Translations under genes and position numbers: made by a program
Part shown: piece by piece, positions 1,405 to 12,794 of the stretch
Layout: the number at the start of each line of letters is the position of its first letter
Numbering within the stretch: position 1 is the first letter of the stretch
Source of the DNA: an uncultured Clostridia bacterium
GTDB lineage: Bacteria; Bacillota; Clostridia; TANB77; CAG-508
Assembly: GCA_944387425.1 (NCBI GenBank)
Contig: CALXEV010000002.1
Span: 13,673-77,672 of the forward strand
Direction of reading: 5' to 3'
DNA length: 64,000 nucleotides
Notes under the pieces: model-generated
What the model was told of the DNA's origin: nothing
Seen by the model: the letters and a program-made list of their open reading frames with translations, nothing else
Databases searched by the model: none

Positions 1405-4008
1405 ATGTGGGAAATTTTGAAAAAGGAAGATGTGCTAAAGAAAATAGGCTCTAACGAAAAAACAGGTCTTGGAAGAAGAGATATAAAACAGCGAAAGCAA
1501 AAATACGGCTTAAACAAATTAGAAGACAAGCCACAAGAAAGCTTGCTAGTAAAATTTATTAAACAATTTGATGATTTTATGATAATTATTCTAATTGTTG
1601 CCTCAATAATATCTGCAGGAGTTTCTTATATACAAGGAGAAAATGACTATGTTGATTCAATTATCATAATTGCTATAGTTATTTTAAATGCTCTTATGGG
1701 TGTAATACAAGAAGCTAAAGCAGAAAAAGCAATTGAATCATTAAAAAAGATGACGCCACCTAAAGCAAAAGTATTAAGGGAAAGTGTAACAACAGAAATT
1801 AATGCAGAAGATTTAGTTCCAGGAGATATTATAATATTAGAAGCGGGAAATTATGTCCCTGCTGATTGTAGACTATTAGAAACTCATAATTTAAAAATTG
1901 AAGAATCAAGTTTAACAGGAGAAACAGAACCTGTTGAAAAAAATGCAGATATAATTTGCAAACAAAATGTACCACTAGGAGATAAGCTCAATATGGCATT
2001 TATGGCAAGTATTGTTGTAAATGGTCATGCAAAAGCAGTTGTTACAGAAATAGGAATGAACACAACTGTTGGAAAAATAGCAAATATGATGCTTCAAGAT
2101 GAAGCTCCAGAAACTCCAATCCAAAAAAAGCTAGAGCAAGTAGGTAAAATACTTGGAATATTATGCCTAGTAATATGTGTTATAATATTTGCTATTGGAC
2201 TAATAAATAAAATAGAACCAATTGAAATGTTTATGACATCAGTTGGGTTGGCAGTAGCTGCAATACCAGAAGGACTTCCTGCTATAGTAACAATTATGTT
2301 ATCTATAGGAGTAACAAAAATGGCAAAAAACAACTGCATAATTAGAAAACTTCCAGCTGTTGAAACATTAGGAAGTAGTAGGGTAATTTGCTCAGATAAA
2401 ACTGGTACATTAACACAAAATAAGATGACAGTTGTAGAAATAAAAGCAAGAGATGCTGATTTAACAAGTGAACTTAGCTGTATGTGTACAGACTGTGAGA
2501 TTATTCGTAAAAGAGGAAAATTAGAAATAAATGGTGAACCAACAGAAATTGCATTAGTTCAAAACGCTTTAAACAGGAACAAAAATAAAACAGAATTAGA
2601 ACAAAACATGCCAAGAGTAGAAGAAATACCATTTGATTCAAATAGAAAAATGATGACAACTATTCATAAAAAAGAAAATAAATATCTTGTTATAACAAAA
2701 GGTGCGCCAGATGTTCTAATAGAAAAATGTAAATTAACATTTGATGAAAAAAGAAAAATCCAAAGAGAAAATATGCAAATGGCAGAAAAGGCTTTAAGAG
2801 TAATTGCTGTATCATACAAAGAATTAGATTTTCTACCTATAAAGATAGATTCTCAAACAATTGAAAATAATTTGAATTTTGTTGGATTAGTAGGAATGAT
2901 AGATCCTCCACGAGAAGGAGTTAAAGAAGCGGTTAAAACATGTAAACAAGCAGGAATAAAAACAGTTATGATAACAGGTGACCACATAGAAACAGCAAAA
3001 GCTATAGCAAAACAACTTGATATATTAGGAGTAAAAGATAAAGCAATAACAGGTCAAGAGTTGGATAGAATTTCACAAGAAAGATTAGAAAAGGAAATTA
3101 GTTTATATTCAGTATTTGCGAGGGTTACACCTGAGCATAAAGTTAGAATAGTAAAAGCGTGGCAGAAAACAGGTGCAGTTGTTGCAATGACTGGTGATGG
3201 CGTAAATGATAGCCCAGCATTAAAAAATGCTGACATTGGAATTGCAATGGGAAAGAGCGGAACTGATGTGGCAAGAAATGCATCAGACATGATTTTAACA
3301 GATGATAACTTTGTAACAATTGTAAAAGCAATCAAGCAAGGCAGAAATATATATGATAATATAAAAAAAGCAATACATTTTTTAATTGCAACAAATATAG
3401 GAGAAATCATAACAATATTTATGGGCTTAATTCTTGGTTTTAAATCAACATTACTAGCAATTCAACTTTTATGGATTAATTTAGTAACAGACTCATTACC
3501 AGCAATTGCAATAGGTCTAGAGCCACCTGAAAAAGACATTATGAGAAGAAAACCTGTAAATAGTAAAAAAAGTATATTTGCAGATGGACTATGGAATAAA
3601 ATAATAATAGAGGGTATTATGCTAGGTACACTTACATTGTTATCATTTAGTATAGGAAATAAATATTATGATTTAGAAGTGGCTAGAACAATGGCATTTA
3701 TTTCACTTGGATTAATGGAACTTGTACATAGTTTTAATATTAAAAGCGAAGACTCAATATTTAAAGTTGGAATATTTGAAAATAAGTTTTTAATTGGAAG
3801 CTTTATATTAGGAGTATTTGTTCAAACAATAGTTGTTTTCATTCCAGCACTGGCAGACATATTCCAATTAGTTCAACTTACTCAAGAACAATGGCTGATA
3901 ACAATCGGAATATCACTTTTACCAATCCCATTAATGGAAATACAAAAGAAAATCCATGAAATAAGATTTGGAAAAGTAGTTTATATAAAAGAAAAGACTG
4001 CAATTTAA
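1405..4008 (+). CDS. P-type cation-transporting ATPase of the Ca2+ (PMCA/SERCA-like, P2A) type
   Basis: The 867-aa protein has the phosphorylation motif DKTGTLT, the TGES actuator motif (SLTGET), the hinge TGDGVNDSPALK and 10 predicted TM segments. An RBS (aaaggagag) lies upstream. Confidence 0.92.
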   Translation: MWEILKKEDVLKKIGSNEKTGLGRRDIKQRKQKYGLNKLEDKPQESLLVKFIKQFDDFMIIILIVASIISAGVSYIQGENDYVDSIIIIAIVILNALMGVIQEAKAEKAIESLKKMTPPKAKVLRESVTTEINAEDLVPGDIIILEAGNYVPADCRLLETHNLKIEESSLTGETEPVEKNADIICKQNVPLGDKLNMAFMASIVVNGHAKAVVTEIGMNTTVGKIANMMLQDEAPETPIQKKLEQVGKILGILCLVICVIIFAIGLINKIEPIEMFMTSVGLAVAAIPEGLPAIVTIMLSIGVTKMAKNNCIIRKLPAVETLGSSRVICSDKTGTLTQNKMTVVEIKARDADLTSELSCMCTDCEIIRKRGKLEINGEPTEIALVQNALNRNKNKTELEQNMPRVEEIPFDSNRKMMTTIHKKENKYLVITKGAPDVLIEKCKLTFDEKRKIQRENMQMAEKALRVIAVSYKELDFLPIKIDSQTIENNLNFVGLVGMIDPPREGVKEAVKTCKQAGIKTVMITGDHIETAKAIAKQLDILGVKDKAITGQELDRISQERLEKEISLYSVFARVTPEHKVRIVKAWQKTGAVVAMTGDGVNDSPALKNADIGIAMGKSGTDVARNASDMILTDDNFVTIVKAIKQGRNIYDNIKKAIHFLIATNIGEIITIFMGLILGFKSTLLAIQLLWINLVTDSLPAIAIGLEPPEKDIMRRKPVNSKKSIFADGLWNKIIIEGIMLGTLTLLSFSIGNKYYDLEVARTMAFISLGLMELVHSFNIKSEDSIFKVGIFENKFLIGSFILGVFVQTIVVFIPALADIFQLVQLTQEQWLITIGISLLPIPLMEIQKKIHEIRFGKVVYIKEKTAI

Positions 4009-4026
4009 CAGTCTTTTCTATTTTTT
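3991..4026. terminator. Bidirectional terminator between the convergent ATPase and htrA genes
   Basis: A 10-bp perfect stem, gaaaagactg (3991-4000) pairing with cagtcttttc (4009-4018), is flanked by an A-run on one side and a T-run on the other. It overlaps both gene ends. Confidence 0.75.
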
Positions 4027-5133
4027 GGCTAAAGTAACTTCAAATGTTTTTGTGATATAACCACGACTAATATTAATAGAAACTTTATCTCCTGGAAGCT
4101 TTGAATAGATATATTCTTTTAATTCAATCATATTATTAATTACATTACCATCAATTGATGTAATAATATCACCAACTTGAATTCCGCTCGAAAACGCAGG
4201 ACTATTTTCAGCAATTTGTACAATATATATTCCAGAAGAATAGTTAGGGCTTGTAGAGATAAAAGGAATTACTTCTTTATCATATGCCCAAATACCAAGG
4301 AAAGCTTCATCAAAATTATTATCATTAACAAACTTTTCTATAACAGGCTTAACTACATTAATTGGAACAGCAAAACCTATACCCTCAGCAGAAGAAATCT
4401 TAACAGTATTTACACCGATTACTTCTCCATTTGGCAAAATAAGCGGACCCCCACTATTACCGGGATTGATTGAGGCATCAGTTTGAATTAAATCAGTCAT
4501 ATAAGAAACAGAATTATTTTCTTCAATTTTAATTGTTCTATTTGTAGCACTAATTATACCAGAAGTAACAGTTCGTCTAAATTCATATCCTATAGGATTT
4601 CCTATAGCATAAACAGTCTCACCTGTCTTAATCTTAGAAGAATCACCAATAGTAGCATAAGGTAAATCTGTAGCATTAATTTTTGTAAGAGACAAATCTA
4701 ATTCTGAATCACACCATACAACTGAACCTTCGTAGGTATATCCATTTTCTAATGTAATATAACAAGTGCTAAGAGTTTCTCCAGTAACATGACAATTGCT
4801 TAAAATATATCCATTACTTGATACAATTATTCCTGTACCAAGACCAAGTTCATTAATAGAACTATTTGATGAGAATATTGAATTAGAATGAGATTTTATT
4901 TTTGAAATACCAACGACACTTTGAGAAACATTTTCTACCATATTTGTTATTGATATGCTATTTTCTAAGACATTATCCACGGTTTGAGTTTGTGAAGATG
5001 TTCCTGTACGGGTTATGTTATATTCTGGAGTAACATCAATGCCTTGATATGTAGTGTAAAAATAATATGCTCCCAATACTAATCCACAAACTGATAAAAC
5101 TATGATTAAAAATTTTCCAATCTTTTTCAACAT
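4018..5133 (-). CDS. htrA: HtrA/DegP-family serine protease (trypsin-like domain plus PDZ), membrane anchored
   Basis: The protein has the catalytic GNSGGPL motif, the His/Asp context (SNCHV, DLSL), a C-terminal PDZ-like region (GIYIVQIAENSPAFSSGIQVGDIITSIDG) and an N-terminal TM anchor. The track ORF starts at GTG 5160, but ATG 5133 has a better RBS (ggtga) and gives an MLKKIGKF N-terminus. Confidence 0.88.
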   Translation of the reverse strand: MLKKIGKFLIIVLSVCGLVLGAYYFYTTYQGIDVTPEYNITRTGTSSQTQTVDNVLENSISITNMVENVSQSVVGISKIKSHSNSIFSSNSSINELGLGTGIIVSSNGYILSNCHVTGETLSTCYITLENGYTYEGSVVWCDSELDLSLTKINATDLPYATIGDSSKIKTGETVYAIGNPIGYEFRRTVTSGIISATNRTIKIEENNSVSYMTDLIQTDASINPGNSGGPLILPNGEVIGVNTVKISSAEGIGFAVPINVVKPVIEKFVNDNNFDEAFLGIWAYDKEVIPFISTSPNYSSGIYIVQIAENSPAFSSGIQVGDIITSIDGNVINNMIELKEYIYSKLPGDKVSINISRGYITKTFEVTLAKK

Positions 5134-5237
5134 ATAGATCACCAATATTAGTATGCTCACAATATAGCCAAGTTAATCTTAATAGAATAAGTTATGCAAA
5201 AATATTTCACAATAAAGAAAAATTTTCTACAAAAAAA

Positions 5238-5266
5238 TTGCAAAAAATACAAAATAATGGTACAAT
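5238..5266 (+). promoter_or_regulatory. Sigma-A type promoter for the NRPS operon
   Basis: TTGCAA (5238-5243), a 17-nt spacer and TACAAT (5261-5266), with TG at the extended -10 position. Confidence 0.6.
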
Positions 5267-5303: not shown

Positions 5304-8300
5304 ATGTTGGGGAAAAATTTAAATGATTTAACAAATTCCCAAAAATCAATTTGGGTAACAGAACAATACTATAAAGGCACAAGCGTAAATAATATTTGTG
5401 GAACAGCAATAATATATGAAAAAGTAGACTTTCTGATTTTAGAGAAAGCCATAAAAATTGTGTGCCAAAAACATGATAATTTTAAAACAAAACTAAAGAT
5501 AAAAGAAGATAATATACGACAAACATTTGAAGAACCTTTAAATAGTGAAATACAAATGATAAAAGTTGACAGTAAAGAAGAACTAGAAAAAAGAAGAGAG
5601 GAAATTGTAAGAAAACCTTTTGACGTAAATCAACATTTATTTAAATTCTATATTTTTAAATTTTCAAATGATTATGGGGCTTTTATGCTCAATATACATC
5701 ATTTAATTTCTGACGCGTGGACTTTAGCGCTTATTTGTAATGAAATAATCAAAACATATTCAGCAATAAAACAAAATAAAGAAGTAGAAACAAAGGCTAT
5801 ATATTCATATATAGACTATATTAATTCTGAAAAAGAATATCAACAAAGTGAAAAATATCAAAAAGATAAAAAATATTGGCTTGAAAAATATCAAACAATA
5901 CCAGAAGTTGCAAGAATTCCTGGTAGCAAATATGAGAATGATAAAATAACAAATATAAAAGGTGAAAGAACTCAATTTTCAGTAAAAAAAGATGAAATTA
6001 ATAAAATAAAAGAATACTGTAAAGAGAATAAAATTTCTTTATATAATTTCTTTATGGCAGTTTTTGCTATATATATTGCAGAAATATCAAATTTAGATGA
6101 TTTTGTTATAGGAACACCAATTTTAAATAGAACTAATTTTAAAGAAAAAAATTGTGCTGGTATGTTTATAAATGTAGCACCATTAAGAATTAATTTTAAA
6201 GAAGATATAGAATTTAAAGAATTTGTTAAAAACATTGCAATAGATAGTATGAATATGTTAAAACACCAAAAATATTCATATCAATCTTTACTTGAGGAAT
6301 TAAGAAAAAAAGACATTAACATACCTAATTTATATAATATTTTATTATCATATCAAATAACAAATACTCAAATGAGTGGAGGAGATATTAAATATAAAAC
6401 AGAATGGACATTTAATGGATGTTCAGCAAATGATTTAGACATACAAATATATGATATAAATGATACAGGGAATTTGAATATAGCATATGATTATAAAAAG
6501 AGCATTTATACAAAAAAAGATATAGAAAATTTACATAGTAGAATACTTTATATAATTAAACAAATTATTGAACAGAACAATATAAATATGCAAGATATAG
6601 AGATTATCACACCAGAAGAAAAGGAAAAAATATTAAATGAGTTTAATAATACTGAAGCCAAATATGATGAAAATGCTTTAATAATTAAATATTTTGAAGA
6701 ACAAGTGGTAAAAGAACCAAATAAAATTGCATTAATATCAAACGGAAATAAAATAACTTATGAAGAACTAAATAAAAAAGCAAATATGCTTGCCAAGTAT
6801 ATTGTAAATAGAGGAATAAAAAAAGATGATGTTATTGGTATAATGGTTAATCGTTCACCAGAAATGATAATTGGACTAATTGCAATACTAAAGTGCGGAG
6901 CAACATATTTACCTATAGACTCAGAATATCCATTAGATAGAATATCATATATGATTGAAAATAGTGAAACAAAGACAGTATTAGTAAATAATAAGACGGA
7001 AAAATTGATTCCGCAAAATTGTTCAAAAATAAATATTGAATTAAAAAATACTGAAATATATAAAGAAACAAATATTCAAAATATCAATATAGGAATAGAA
7101 ACAAATACATTAGCATATCTGATATATACATCAGGTTCTACAGGAAAACCAAAAGGAGTAAAAATAACACATAGAAATCTTAATAATTTTATAATAGGTA
7201 TGAAAAAAATTATAGACTTTAATCCAAATAAAGTCATGGTATCTGTTACAACAATTAGTTTTGATATTTTCGGATTAGAAATATGGTGTTCTCTTTCTTC
7301 AGGACAAACACTAGTGCTTGCTAATGAAGAAGAACAAAACACACCTTCATTATTAAATAAATTATGTATGGAAAACAAAGTTAATATTATACAAACAACT
7401 CCATCAAGATATTCAACTATTTTTGAAAATCCAAATAATTTAGGATTTTTAAAAAATATATCAGAAATATTGGTTGGTGGAGAAGCTATAAATAACAAAT
7501 TATTGCAAAATATGAAAAAATTTTCTAATGCAAGAATTTTTAATATGTATGGACCAACAGAAACAACAATATGGTCAACAGTAAAGGAATTGACAAACGA
7601 GAAAAAAATTACGATTGGAAAACCTATAGCAAATACGCAATGTTATATACTAAATAAAAATCATAAGGTATTACCTACAAACATAGCAGGAGAATTATAC
7701 ATTGGAGGAGATGTGTTATCAAAAGGATATTTAAAACGAGATGATTTGAATGCAGAAAAATTTATAAGATCTCCATTAAAAAAACATGAAAAGATATATA
7801 ACACAAATGATTTAGCATATTTTAAAGATAATGGTGAAATAGTACACCTTGGTAGAACAGATTACCAAGTAAAAATACGTGGATTTAGAGTTGAACTTGG
7901 AGAAATAGAAAATATTATTGAAAAGGAAAAAAGCATTACACAATGTGTTGTTGTAAAAAAGAAATTATTAAATGGACATGATGCCTTAATAGCATATTAT
8001 ACAACAAACCAAGAAAATGACGATAATAATTTAGAAAACAGGTTAAGAGAAGAATTAAACAAAGAGTTACCACAATATATGGTTCCTCAATATATTATAA
8101 AGTTGGCACAAATGCCATATACTCCAAATGGAAAAATTGATAGAAAGTCATTACCTGAACCACATATCAAAAACGAAAGAAAAGAAATTATAAAACCTAG
8201 AAATGAATTAGATAAAGAGTTAATAAAAATATTAAGTAAAATGCTACGTGTAGAAAACATTAGTATTGAAGATAGCTTGCTTGAATTAGGCGGAGACTCA

Positions 8301-11300
8301 TTAACAGCTATAACATTATCAACCAAAATACTATCAAAATATGATGTACAAGTTAGCATAAAAGATATTTTAACAAAATACAAAATAAAAGATATATCTG
8401 ATTATATTTCTGAAAACAAATCTAAAGGTAATGAAAAAATAAAAATCAAAAAAGCTCCTATACAAGAATTATATCCTTTATCAACAGCACAGAAAAGAAT
8501 CTATTATAATTCTAAAATGATAGGAGAAGAAAATATAGTTTATAATTTATCAGGAGCTATATTAGTTGAAGATATATTAGATAAAAATAAAGTAAAGGAA
8601 ATATTTGAAAAAATAATAGAAAGACATGAAATACTTAGAACATCATTTGTAGTAAAAGAAGGTGAATTGTTCCAAAAAGTAGAAGACAAATTTGATTTTG
8701 AAATACCAATATATAATGATAAGAATGAAGATATTCAAGAAATAGTTGACAATTTTTCTAAACCATTTAATTTAGAAAAAGCTCCATTAATACGAGTAGA
8801 GCTACATTACATAGATAATGCAAAAACATTATTATTGTTAGAAACTCATCATATTGTAATGGATGGAACAGGACTAAATAATTTAATAATTGAATTCAAT
8901 AGATTATATAATGGAGCAAACTTAAAGAAGATACCTATACAATATAAGGATTATGCTGTTTGGGAAAATGAGTATATTAAAAGTAAAAATATAGAAAAAT
9001 ATGAACAATATTGGCTAAATAAATTTAAAGATATTGAATTATCACAGCTAAATTTACCTTATGATTATAAATTGCCAACAAATAGAAGTTATAAAGGTGC
9101 TAAAGTTAGTAATATGATGCAAGAGGCAGACTTCATGAAAATAGAGAGATATGCTAAAAAGATAGGTGTATCACCATATATGTTCTTTATAACTACATTT
9201 TTAATTCTACTATATAAATATACTGGACAAAATGACATTACAATAGGTAGTCCAATTGCAAATAGAAATATAAATGAAACCAAAAGAATGATAGGTATGT
9301 TTGGAAATAATATAGTTGTAAGAGGAAAAATAAATTCAGATAGCACTTTCATCGACTTTCTAAATGAAATAAAAAATCAAATATTAGATGACTTATCAAA
9401 CCAACCATATCCGTTTGATATGTTAGTAAAAAAATTGAATATAAAAAATAATAGTTCTAATAATCCACTATTTGATATAATGTTCACATATCAGAACAAA
9501 GAAGAAAATATAATAGAAATAGGCGAGAAACATAGTCAAATAATAGAACTTGACAATAATATATCAAAATTTAATTTATCTATAGAAGTAAAACCTAAAA
9601 CTCATACAATTAACATAGAATATTGTACTGACTTATTCAAGGAAGATACAATAAAAAGATTGTTTATACATTATATGAACACAATTAAGAGTGTTGTAGA
9701 AGATAAAGAGATAAAAATAAAAGATATTAGCATAATTTCACAAGAAGAAAAAAATAAAATACTATATGAATTTAATAATACAAAAACAGAATATCCTAGA
9801 GACAAAACAGTAGCTCAACTATTTGAAGAACAAGCTCAAAAAACTCCAGATAATATAGCAGTTGTTTTTGATGACAAAAAGCTAACATATAGAGAATTAA
9901 ATGAGAAAGCAAATCAGTTAGCTGATTATATACTAAAACAAGATATACATAGTGGTGATGTAATTCCATTATTATTAGATAAGTCATTAGAATCTATAGT
10001 TGCAATAATAGCAATATTGAAGATTGGATGTGCTTATTTGCCAATAGATATAGGATATCCAAAAGAAAGAATAGAATATATTTTAAAAGATTCAAAAGCA
10101 AAGATTTTATTAACATCAAGAAATTTGAACTTAGAAACAAGATTACTTATAAAAACAATATATATTGACTTAGATACAGAAAATATATATTCTTCAAGTG
10201 CAAAACAAAACATTAATTATAAAGGAAATACTTCAGATTTAGCTTATATAATGTACACATCAGGCTCAACAGGAAAACCAAAAGGAGTTATGATAGAAAA
10301 TAAAAATATAGTAAGACTTGTTAAAAATACTAATTATATAGAATTTAAGAAAGATGATAAGATTTTACAAACAGGTTCAATTGTTTTTGATGCATGTACA
10401 TTTGAAATATGGGGAGCATTATTAAATGGATTAGAATTATATATAATCAAAAAAGAGGAATTATTAGATGCTGAAAAACTACATACTTATATAATAAAAA
10501 ATAAAATAAGTGTTTTATGGCTAACAGCACCATTATTCAATCAATTAACTGAAGATAATCCACATATGTTTAGAACAGTAAGATGTGCATTAACAGGAGG
10601 AGATGTCTTATCATGTAAACATATAAATATGGTAAAATCAGCTAATCCTAAACTAATTTTAATAAATGGATATGGACCAACAGAAAATACAACATTTTCT
10701 TGTTGCTTTAAAATTGATAAACAATATAAAAATTCAATACCAATCGGAAAACCAATTGCAAACTCAACATGTTATATAATGTCTAAAGATGAGAAATTGC
10801 AACCTATAGGTATTCCGGGAGAACTATGGGTTGGTGGAGATGGAGTTGGTAGAGGTTACCTAAATAATCCAGACCTAACAAAAGAAAAATTTATAGACAA
10901 TCCTTTTAATGATGGAAAGGCATATAAAACAGGAGATTTAGCAAAATGGAATGAAGATGGTACTGTAGAATTTATGGGTAGAATTGATAGTCAAATAAAA
11001 ATAAGAGGTTTCAGAGTAGAATTAAGTGAAATAACTACAGTTGTTTCTTTATATTATGGTATTAAAGAAGCATATACTATATATAAAGATATAAAAAATG
11101 AAAAGGCAATATGTACATATATCGTTTCTAAAGAAAAGATTGATACTGAAAAATTAAAAACATATATGGCAAAATTTTTACCACAATACATGATACCTAA
11201 ATATATTATTCAACTAAAAAGTTTACCTAAAAATCAAAATGGAAAAATTGATAAAAATGCATTGCCAGAAATAAAACAAAGTGTAAAAAATGAAAAAACA

Positions 11301-12794: not shown

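Follow-up and report, generated by a model that had tools for sequence, protein, structure and literature searches.

Protease-inhibiting peptide aldehydes are known to come from reductase-terminated nonribosomal peptide synthetases (NRPSs) of gut Clostridia, and the version of this family with an N-terminal condensation (C) domain gives N-acyl peptide aldehydes. Clusters of this kind giving dipeptide aldehydes were reportedly described by Guo et al. 2017 (Cell 168:517), and ruminopeptin, with the rup cluster of Ruminococcus bromii, is said to come from Schneider & Balskus 2018. According to reviews, the peptide aldehydes given by such clusters inhibit cathepsins and are isolated as pyrazinones. 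The dimodular AusA/PznA of Staphylococcus aureus, with its phosphopantetheinyl transferase (PPTase) AusB, has the order A-T-C-A-T-R, where A, T and R stand for adenylation, carrier and reductase domains; as an N-terminal C domain is lacking, the dipeptide aldehyde that it makes is free and cyclises to pyrazinones. The present analysis concerns an NRPS gene (5304..12794, + strand) in a 64,000-nucleotide stretch, hereafter the window, of contig CALXEV010000002.1 from an uncultured Clostridia bacterium of the order TANB77. The gene is read here, with a probability of about 0.6, as encoding a functional acyl-Gly-Val aldehyde synthetase whose product is the ligand of the histidine kinase encoded directly downstream.

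Compared by description, the locus resembles the Guo 2017 and rup clusters in being a small gut-Clostridia NRPS ending in a thioester reductase, in consisting of one large gene with tailoring genes few or absent, and in corresponding to the version with an N-terminal C domain. It differs from them in its host, an uncultured chicken-gut lineage with a 1.4-Mb genome, in its predicted residues Gly and Val, and in the gene order of its NRPS lineage, whereby a histidine kinase gene follows the NRPS gene in about 50 of 56 loci and an HD-GYP regulator gene is usually found nearby. The initial annotation of the window had placed the gene among human gut Clostridia; the gut Clostridia lineage stands, while the host is of the chicken gut, at least 20 metagenome runs from which contain the gene (nearest named record, an uncultured Clostridia metagenome-assembled genome). 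In common with AusA are the dimodular build, the reductive release and a homologous R domain (138 bits, 4F6C). Unlike AusA, the enzyme has an extra N-terminal C domain, its genome is without an AusB-type PPTase, and AusA (NF047350), its best NCBIfam model, matches part of the protein with 1672 bits, below the equivalog cut-off of 2500. What is new here is a sister NRPS lineage that nearly all members of an order with 1-2 Mb genomes have retained and that is coupled to a sensor kinase, usually near a cyclic di-GMP (c-di-GMP) phosphodiesterase gene, in genomes nearly all of which have a single AcpS-sized PPTase.

Domain organisation and predicted product of the synthetase

The NRPS gene is a single long open reading frame (ORF), open from 5295 (GTG) or 5304 (ATG) to 12794, and the ATG at 5304 is favoured as the start, with AAAGGG 8-9 nt upstream and a match to the 2496-aa protein on the database record. 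Pfam analysis gave Condensation, AMP-binding, AMP-binding_C and PP-binding matches, twice each (Condensation with 594 bits in total over 2 stretches), followed by NAD_binding_4/Epimerase at residues 2118-2370, and the core motifs were located by regular expressions. The ORF encodes a complete C-A-T-C-A-T-R NRPS with all core motifs. The C3 motifs are HHLISDAW at residue 135 and HHIVMDG at residue 1185, and both A domains have the A3 motif TSGSTGKPKG, an A5 motif (NMYGPTE and NGYGPTE), A7 (YNTND at 835 in module 1, YKTGD at 1877 in module 2), A8 and the A10 lysine (Lys947 and Lys1984). The carrier domains T1 (8196..8414, +; GGDSL) and T2 (11328..11519, +; GGDSI), recognised by Pfam and motifs, share the motif GGDS with the attachment serines Ser1002 (codon at 8298-8300) and Ser2040 (codon at 11412-11414), which are conserved in 28/28 homologues. 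Conservation was judged on an alignment of 28 two-module homologues of 50-72% identity, across which the catalytic residues are invariant. ORF, Pfam, motifs and homologues give the predicted layout Cs-A(Gly)-T-LCL-A(Val)-T-R, Cs being a starter-type C domain.

The domain order given in the initial annotation is thus borne out by Pfam and motifs, as is its terminal reductase of the short-chain dehydrogenase/reductase type, with the NAD_binding_4 match, the triad and no thioesterase (TE) domain; the essential residues, including both T-domain serines, are all present. The same annotation had called HHLISDAW and YNTNDL unusual. Both motifs exist, and they are not unusual, since they are the consensus among the bimodular homologues: the C1 motif there is HHxxxD(A/S/G)W, with Ala or Ser in 24/28 and with His136, Asp140 and Trp142 invariant, and the module-1 A7 is YNTNDL in 16/28, with Tyr and Asp invariant and Asn in the position of Gly. 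Decay of the motifs in C1 and A1 was ruled out because both represent this family consensus, and, judged from the alignment, the two are lineage traits under selection.

In order to place the condensation domains, C1 (5304..6629, +; HHLISDAW at 5697-5720) and C2 (8463..9764, +; HHIVMDG), a maximum-likelihood tree was computed from 51 C and epimerisation (E) domains, in which the starter-C references were labelled by their position in their own NRPS. The C1 domains of the family, including that of the window, form one clade with two other N-terminal C domains at a support of 100/99, namely those of a fusaricidin-synthetase-like (FusA-like) NRPS of Paenibacillus peoriae and of a Pseudomonas lipopeptide (CLP-type) NRPS. 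The family C2 domains are found among the LCL domains, with 288 bits to TycC C6 (PDB 2JGP) for that of the window, and DCL and E domains form separate clades. C1 is divergent: against TycC C6 it reaches 105 bits and against the starter domains of RzmA and SrfAA 74 bits, and it shares 30% identity with the N-terminal C domain from Paenibacillus vs 18-24% with the C domains of other gut reductase-terminated NRPSs. Judged by this placement, C1 is a lipo-initiation (starter) condensation domain akin to the fusaricidin-, surfactin- and CLP-type domains of Bacillales and Pseudomonas, with two of which it groups. The lipopeptide synthetases themselves differ from the enzyme of the window, which has no adjacent fatty-acyl-AMP ligase (FAAL) or acyl carrier protein (ACP) gene, a two-residue product and reductive instead of TE release.

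No other C domain was found in the genome, whose only NRPS this is, and the carrier domains of the genome are three only (two in the NRPS, the third a free ACP); there is therefore no peptidyl donor for C1. With a starter-type C1 the product of the NRPS would be expected to be N-acylated, the amine of the first residue is probably blocked by this acylation, and a pyrazinone is not expected because an acylated N-terminus cannot attack the aldehyde. The phylogenetic placement suggested in the initial annotation consequently favours the starter clade over LCL, and its remark that the N-terminal C domain may N-acylate the first residue is upheld by the tree. The pyrazinone product which it had proposed is not borne out, given that a starter-type C1 would block the amine. 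Of its assignment to the dipeptide-aldehyde type, the reductase-terminated dimodular NRPS remains, while the predicted product becomes an N-acyl compound without pyrazinone cyclisation.

The specificities of A1 (6657..8174, +; with the family-typical A7 YNTNDL) and A2 (9822..11279, +) were read from a MAFFT alignment to GrsA-PheA, in which the reference returned its own canonical code DAWTIAAICK. For A1 the code is DILQLGMIWK, exactly as reported for Gly-activating domains (PMC12283262), and for A2 it is DAFWLGGTFK, assigned to Val in malacidin MlcM (PMC9113097). This code extraction, also suggested in the initial annotation, gives Gly and then Val as the predicted residues. The codes of the relatives form a small alphabet used in all orders over 1, 2 or 3 modules, comprising Gly, Val, Thr (DFWNIGMVHK), Ser (DVWHFSLVDK), Asn-like and Pro-like codes, together with codes without a residue assignment, DIFQTAGVFK, DVWYLGGICK and DMALQGGSCK among them.

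The terminal thioester reductase R (11646..12791, +; Pfam NAD_binding_4 at 1e-46) has TGVTGFLG at residue 2121, ISTIS at 2249 and YVRSK at 2290, with the triad Thr2251/Tyr2290/Lys2294. Its best PDB matches are 6VTJ (Mru_0351 PCP-R, 215 bits), AusA-R (4F6C, 138 bits) and MxaA-R (4U7W, 120 bits). Mru_0351 of Methanobrevibacter ruminantium (PMC8024701) is the closest solved R domain and also comes from a gut or rumen organism; it is, on the other hand, archaeal, the similarity is in the T-R tail only and Methanobrevibacter-type C domains belong to a different clade. Aldehyde and alcohol release cannot yet be told apart from sequence (PMC8024701), and the product is for this reason given as either, an N-acyl-Gly-Val aldehyde (or alcohol) being expected.

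In the proposed mechanism, T1 and T2 would be primed by the single AcpS-type PPTase of the genome, and C1 would move an acyl group, presumably from acyl-CoA or acyl-ACP, onto the Gly loaded on T1 by A1. C2, as an LCL domain, would then join acyl-Gly to the Val loaded on T2 by A2, these specificities being predicted from the pocket codes, and R would use NAD(P)H to free the chain from its thioester as N-acyl-Gly-Val aldehyde, a second reduction giving the alcohol. The acylated N-terminus would keep the aldehyde from cyclising to a pyrazinone, and the most likely role of the product would be to be sensed by the apparently co-transcribed kinase, with a seven-transmembrane (7TM) sensor and a PAS domain, feeding via the regulator with receiver (REC) and HD-GYP domains into c-di-GMP turnover.

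The enzyme could instead be an ordinary member of the human-gut Clostridia group, making a free or acylated dipeptide aldehyde which inhibits host cysteine or serine proteases, the unacylated form going to a (dihydro)pyrazinone, with a kinase that only regulates the gene or is unrelated to it. Such an explanation draws on the identical architecture with its terminal R domain, on a host living in the gut, on the cathepsin-inhibiting aldehydes isolated as pyrazinones which the reviews give for such clusters, and on AusA, the aureusimine pyrazinone synthetase, as best NCBIfam model. The score to that model is well below its cut-off, however, and the conserved starter-type C1, by probably blocking the amine, argues against a pyrazinone. 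A further comparison was made with enzymes of identical domain order found in rumen Bacilli, Acutalibacteraceae, Ca. Equimonas faecalis, Coriobacteriaceae and Methanobrevibacter (L053, L062, L063, L029 and L039). To these the window enzyme is 18-28% identical in its C domains and 32-38% in its A domains, as against 30-38% and 35-48%, respectively, to a Paenibacillus or another Bacillota NRPS; the C-A-T modules are thus closer to those of Bacillales lipopeptide synthetases than to those of the other gut enzymes, with which only the T2-R tail is shared (30-35% identity). Because both C domains of that gut group form a clade of their own, apart from LCL, DCL, starter and E domains, and only the T-R tail is common, the C-A-T-C-A-T-R architecture exists in at least two lineages. 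Host-protease inhibition alone would also leave unexplained the coupling of the NRPS to a kinase, their joint loss and the co-variation of the sensor. This explanation is consequently regarded as unlikely, though it is the strongest of the rivals considered, and protease inhibition is possible as an additional or alternative activity of the product.

Coupling of the synthetase to a sensor kinase

The reading of the product as a kinase ligand starts from the 7TM-PAS histidine kinase gene (12802..14610, +; Pfam HisKA_7TM, PAS, HisKA and HATPase_c), which begins 7 nt past the NRPS stop. Homologues of the NRPS were found in 56/61 genomes of the order, belonging to 11 genera and 5 families with genome sizes of 0.8-2.4 Mb, and the gene neighbourhoods of these 56 loci were compared. 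In about 50 of them the kinase gene lies directly after the NRPS gene, often overlapping it or within a few bases, and the REC-HD-GYP regulator gene is usually next. Within the genus, the kinase is absent from all five NRPS-less genomes and stands beside the NRPS in 6/6 NRPS-bearing controls; in the same five genomes the orthologue of the regulator is absent or strongly diverged. The Pfam matches of the 8 neighbour genes of the NRPS include no PPTase, MbtH, tailoring or peptide-export gene, in agreement with the initial annotation. The NRPS is not a stand-alone cluster, being the first gene of an NRPS-kinase unit conserved throughout the order. From its distribution, this unit with its nearby HD-GYP regulator is an order-wide, vertically inherited one.

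Kinases were split at the H-box into membrane sensor, PAS/linker part and kinase core in order to compare the sensors. Sensors are 223-233 aa long with the two-module NRPSs of this and one sister family and 281-318 aa long with one-module NRPSs, except in family f3, where one-module loci have short sensors. Among pairs of one-module loci with a kinase-core identity of 75-88%, the mean sensor identity was 72% where the A code was the same (n=6) vs 27% where it was different (n=41), and by regression the same-code effect on sensor identity was +17.7 points (label permutation, p ~0.0005). For the two-module loci, the sensor of the window is 83% identical to that of its closest relative, both being Gly-Val, and 62-66% identical to those of Gly-Gly or Gly-X loci.

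As for transcription, a promoter-like site, TTGCAA-17-TACAAT with extended TG (5238..5266, +), lies in the intergenic region between NRPS and the divergent gene of an HtrA-type protease, as a pattern match only from a consensus scan, and no terminator-like site was found between the NRPS and kinase genes. In four chicken-gut metatranscriptomes, contigs were found that cover the NRPS gene in part and at low depth, and one contig of 809 nt (12616-13424) runs across the NRPS stop into the start of the kinase gene. NRPS and kinase are apparently co-transcribed.

The regulator gene (14767..15834, +; Pfam Response_reg and HD_5), found beside the kinase in most loci, has as best NCBIfam model a response-regulator c-di-GMP phosphodiesterase, with a score below the cut-off of the model, and it may have its own promoter. 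Since the genome encodes two GGDEF proteins, c-di-GMP signalling is plausible. The arrangement can be compared by analogy with the rpf/DSF system of Xanthomonas, which would be alike in logic, in that a synthase of a lipid-like signal (RpfF), a membrane sensor kinase (RpfC) and a REC-HD-GYP c-di-GMP phosphodiesterase (RpfG) are encoded together; RpfF is a crotonase while the window has an NRPS, the kinase of the window is of the 7TM-PAS type and there is no sequence relationship. As with the synthase and receptor genes of a signal circuit, NRPS and kinase were found to be linked, co-inherited and co-varying (more weakly in two-module loci). The enzymology is well supported by sequence, while we infer the signalling role from linkage, joint loss and co-variation, by which the NRPS product is probably the ligand of the downstream kinase. 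A role of the NRPS as signal synthase is thus plausible but unproven, and the neighbourhood speaks for signalling no less than for inhibition of host proteases. In the literature searched, no paper was found linking such an NRPS to a histidine kinase or peptide aldehydes to quorum sensing, nor any on TANB77 NRPSs. If the product is indeed the kinase ligand, it would represent a new chemical class of bacterial signal and give a rationale for gut bacteria making such molecules at all, and the idea lends itself to a direct test, since the predicted N-acyl-Gly-Val aldehyde is a simple target for synthesis.

Carrier-domain priming, acyl supply and weight of the evidence

The genome (1.416 Mb, 97% complete) has one PF01648 match only, which is its sole PPTase, an AcpS of 132 aa passing the NCBIfam acpS cut-off (TIGR00516) and encoded at G000 contig C11:30982-31317 (L001 1480-1878; minus strand). 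No Sfp-type PPTase was found in the genome, and no homologue of the Sfp-type enzyme of a sister genus either. Throughout the order, a PPTase match was obtained in 59/61 genomes, exactly one in all but one of these and nearly always AcpS-sized. In one genus (G044, G048) the single PPTase is instead a 186-195-aa Sfp/AusB-like enzyme encoded between NRPS and HtrA, beside a fatty-acid-CoA-ligase-like gene. That AcpS is kept solely for the NRPS was ruled out, since the genome also encodes a FabF-type ketosynthase and a free ACP, and we infer that in this order fatty-acid synthesis and the NRPS depend on the same single PPTase. Heterologous expression may depend on the choice of PPTase.

Candidates for acyl supply are encoded elsewhere in the genome, namely the same FabF-type ketosynthase and free ACP together with two FadD-like ligases. 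Closer linkage is seen in relatives: at locus L109, of one sister genus, a fatty-acid-CoA-ligase-like gene and an AusB-like Sfp-type PPTase gene lie beside the NRPS, and at L143, of a second genus, a ligase-like ORF adjoins it.

The PPTase bears also on the idea that the NRPS is a relic, inactive in vivo as the apo form in a genome without an Sfp-type PPTase, for which the lone AcpS above its family cut-off and the missing counterpart of the sister-genus enzyme would speak. Against this stand a 7.5-kb ORF that is intact in a 1.4-Mb genome, the homologues kept in 56/61 genomes, the PPTase match that, with one exception, is single in the 59 genomes having any and is nearly always AcpS-sized, and the transcripts detected in metatranscriptome contigs. 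The strain-level differences in these contigs, 33 in total, are moreover mostly synonymous (20, with 13 that are not), which is consistent with purifying selection. A relic is therefore very improbable, the least likely of the explanations weighed here.

Several points nonetheless weigh against the reading of a functional acyl-Gly-Val aldehyde synthetase with the kinase as receptor of its product. The genome is without an Sfp-type PPTase, and the carrier domains of NRPSs are not, as a rule, primed by AcpS enzymes. In the window no ligase or ACP gene adjoins the NRPS, and the acyl donor is a presumed one. The specificity codes are predictions, the A7 motif of A1 is atypical and the product is a predicted one, while the starter-C references of the tree are defined by position and not by experiment. 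Regarding the kinase, loci L099 and L100 differ in A2 and yet have sensors that are 87% identical, the co-variation being weak among two-module loci, and the co-variation as such could simply reflect linkage, block inheritance or exchange. The RNA evidence consists of assembled low-depth contigs and could include DNA carry-over.

A wider proposal extends the kinase-ligand reading to the whole order, which would use NRPS-made N-acyl peptide aldehydes of 1-3 residues, drawn from the small alphabet, as private autoinducers, each with its matched co-transcribed 7TM kinase acting on the REC-HD-GYP phosphodiesterase; the window would hold the acyl-Gly-Val 'word', and the AcpS-type PPTase would serve both the fatty-acid and the NRPS pathways. 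This extension is put forward tentatively, as an idea somewhat more apt to fail than to hold.

Neighbouring genes and related loci

Upstream of the NRPS, the HtrA-type serine protease gene (4018..5160, - strand; Pfam Trypsin_2 and PDZ) is transcribed divergently and is adjacent to the NRPS in most loci of 2/5 families. It may or may not belong to the NRPS-kinase unit. In the four chicken-gut metatranscriptome assemblies it is covered 10-60x, several-fold above the NRPS. At P1, proteases of the DegP family favour small aliphatic residues, Val among them. It is conceivable that the acyl-Gly-Val aldehyde targets an HtrA/DegP-type protease, be it the divergently encoded one or those of competitors, and binds the catalytic serine with Val at P1; the adjacency in these two families, the good coverage of HtrA and the fit of the predicted Val to the P1 preference all go with such a target. 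HtrA is missing, however, from the neighbourhood in the three other families of the order, its adjacency may be plain synteny, and the relatives differ widely in their last predicted residue (Gly, Thr, Ser, Asn and others), which ill suits a single conserved protease target. An HtrA target is accordingly held to be improbable, and the product is still best seen as a ligand of the kinase.

Downstream of the regulator, a lone gene for a tyrosine recombinase (15929-16873, +; Phage_integrase and SAM-like N domain) lies before tex. It is missing at that position from all related loci examined, the closest relative (L096) having an unrelated 149-aa ORF instead, and is the sole window-specific part of the block. 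Tex is found beyond the regulator within the genus. An integrated island of 11.7 kb was considered and ruled out, since many species of the genus share the order HtrA-NRPS-kinase-regulator-Tex and the NRPS-kinase pair is conserved across five families. The G+C content of the NRPS-kinase block, ~23-27%, is only slightly lower than the 28-32% of the flanks, a difference that gives no sign of recent transfer.

The block from HtrA to the recombinase has a strong bidirectional terminator-like hairpin on either side, one at 3990-4019 between a P-type ATPase gene and HtrA and the other at 16870-16909 between the recombinase and tex.

The homologues of the order take several forms, many being C-A-T-R enzymes of ~1430 aa and others two-module enzymes or three-module forms of 3500 aa. 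A pattern scan of genome contigs with universal NRPS motifs returned mostly generic NRPSs, of which only L004 is a true family member; the rest served as references in the C-domain tree. At L105 (G024:C1, locus 7940-12266) the NRPS is split into ORFs of 615 aa and 829 aa, matching residues 1-592 and 1647-2489 of the window enzyme, which looks like a deletion between A1 and A2 that turned a two-module into a one-module enzyme, with the short two-module-type kinase sensor kept. At two other loci among the relatives, L110 (G038:C2) and L143 (G055:C6), two paralogous 7TM kinases are encoded beside one NRPS.

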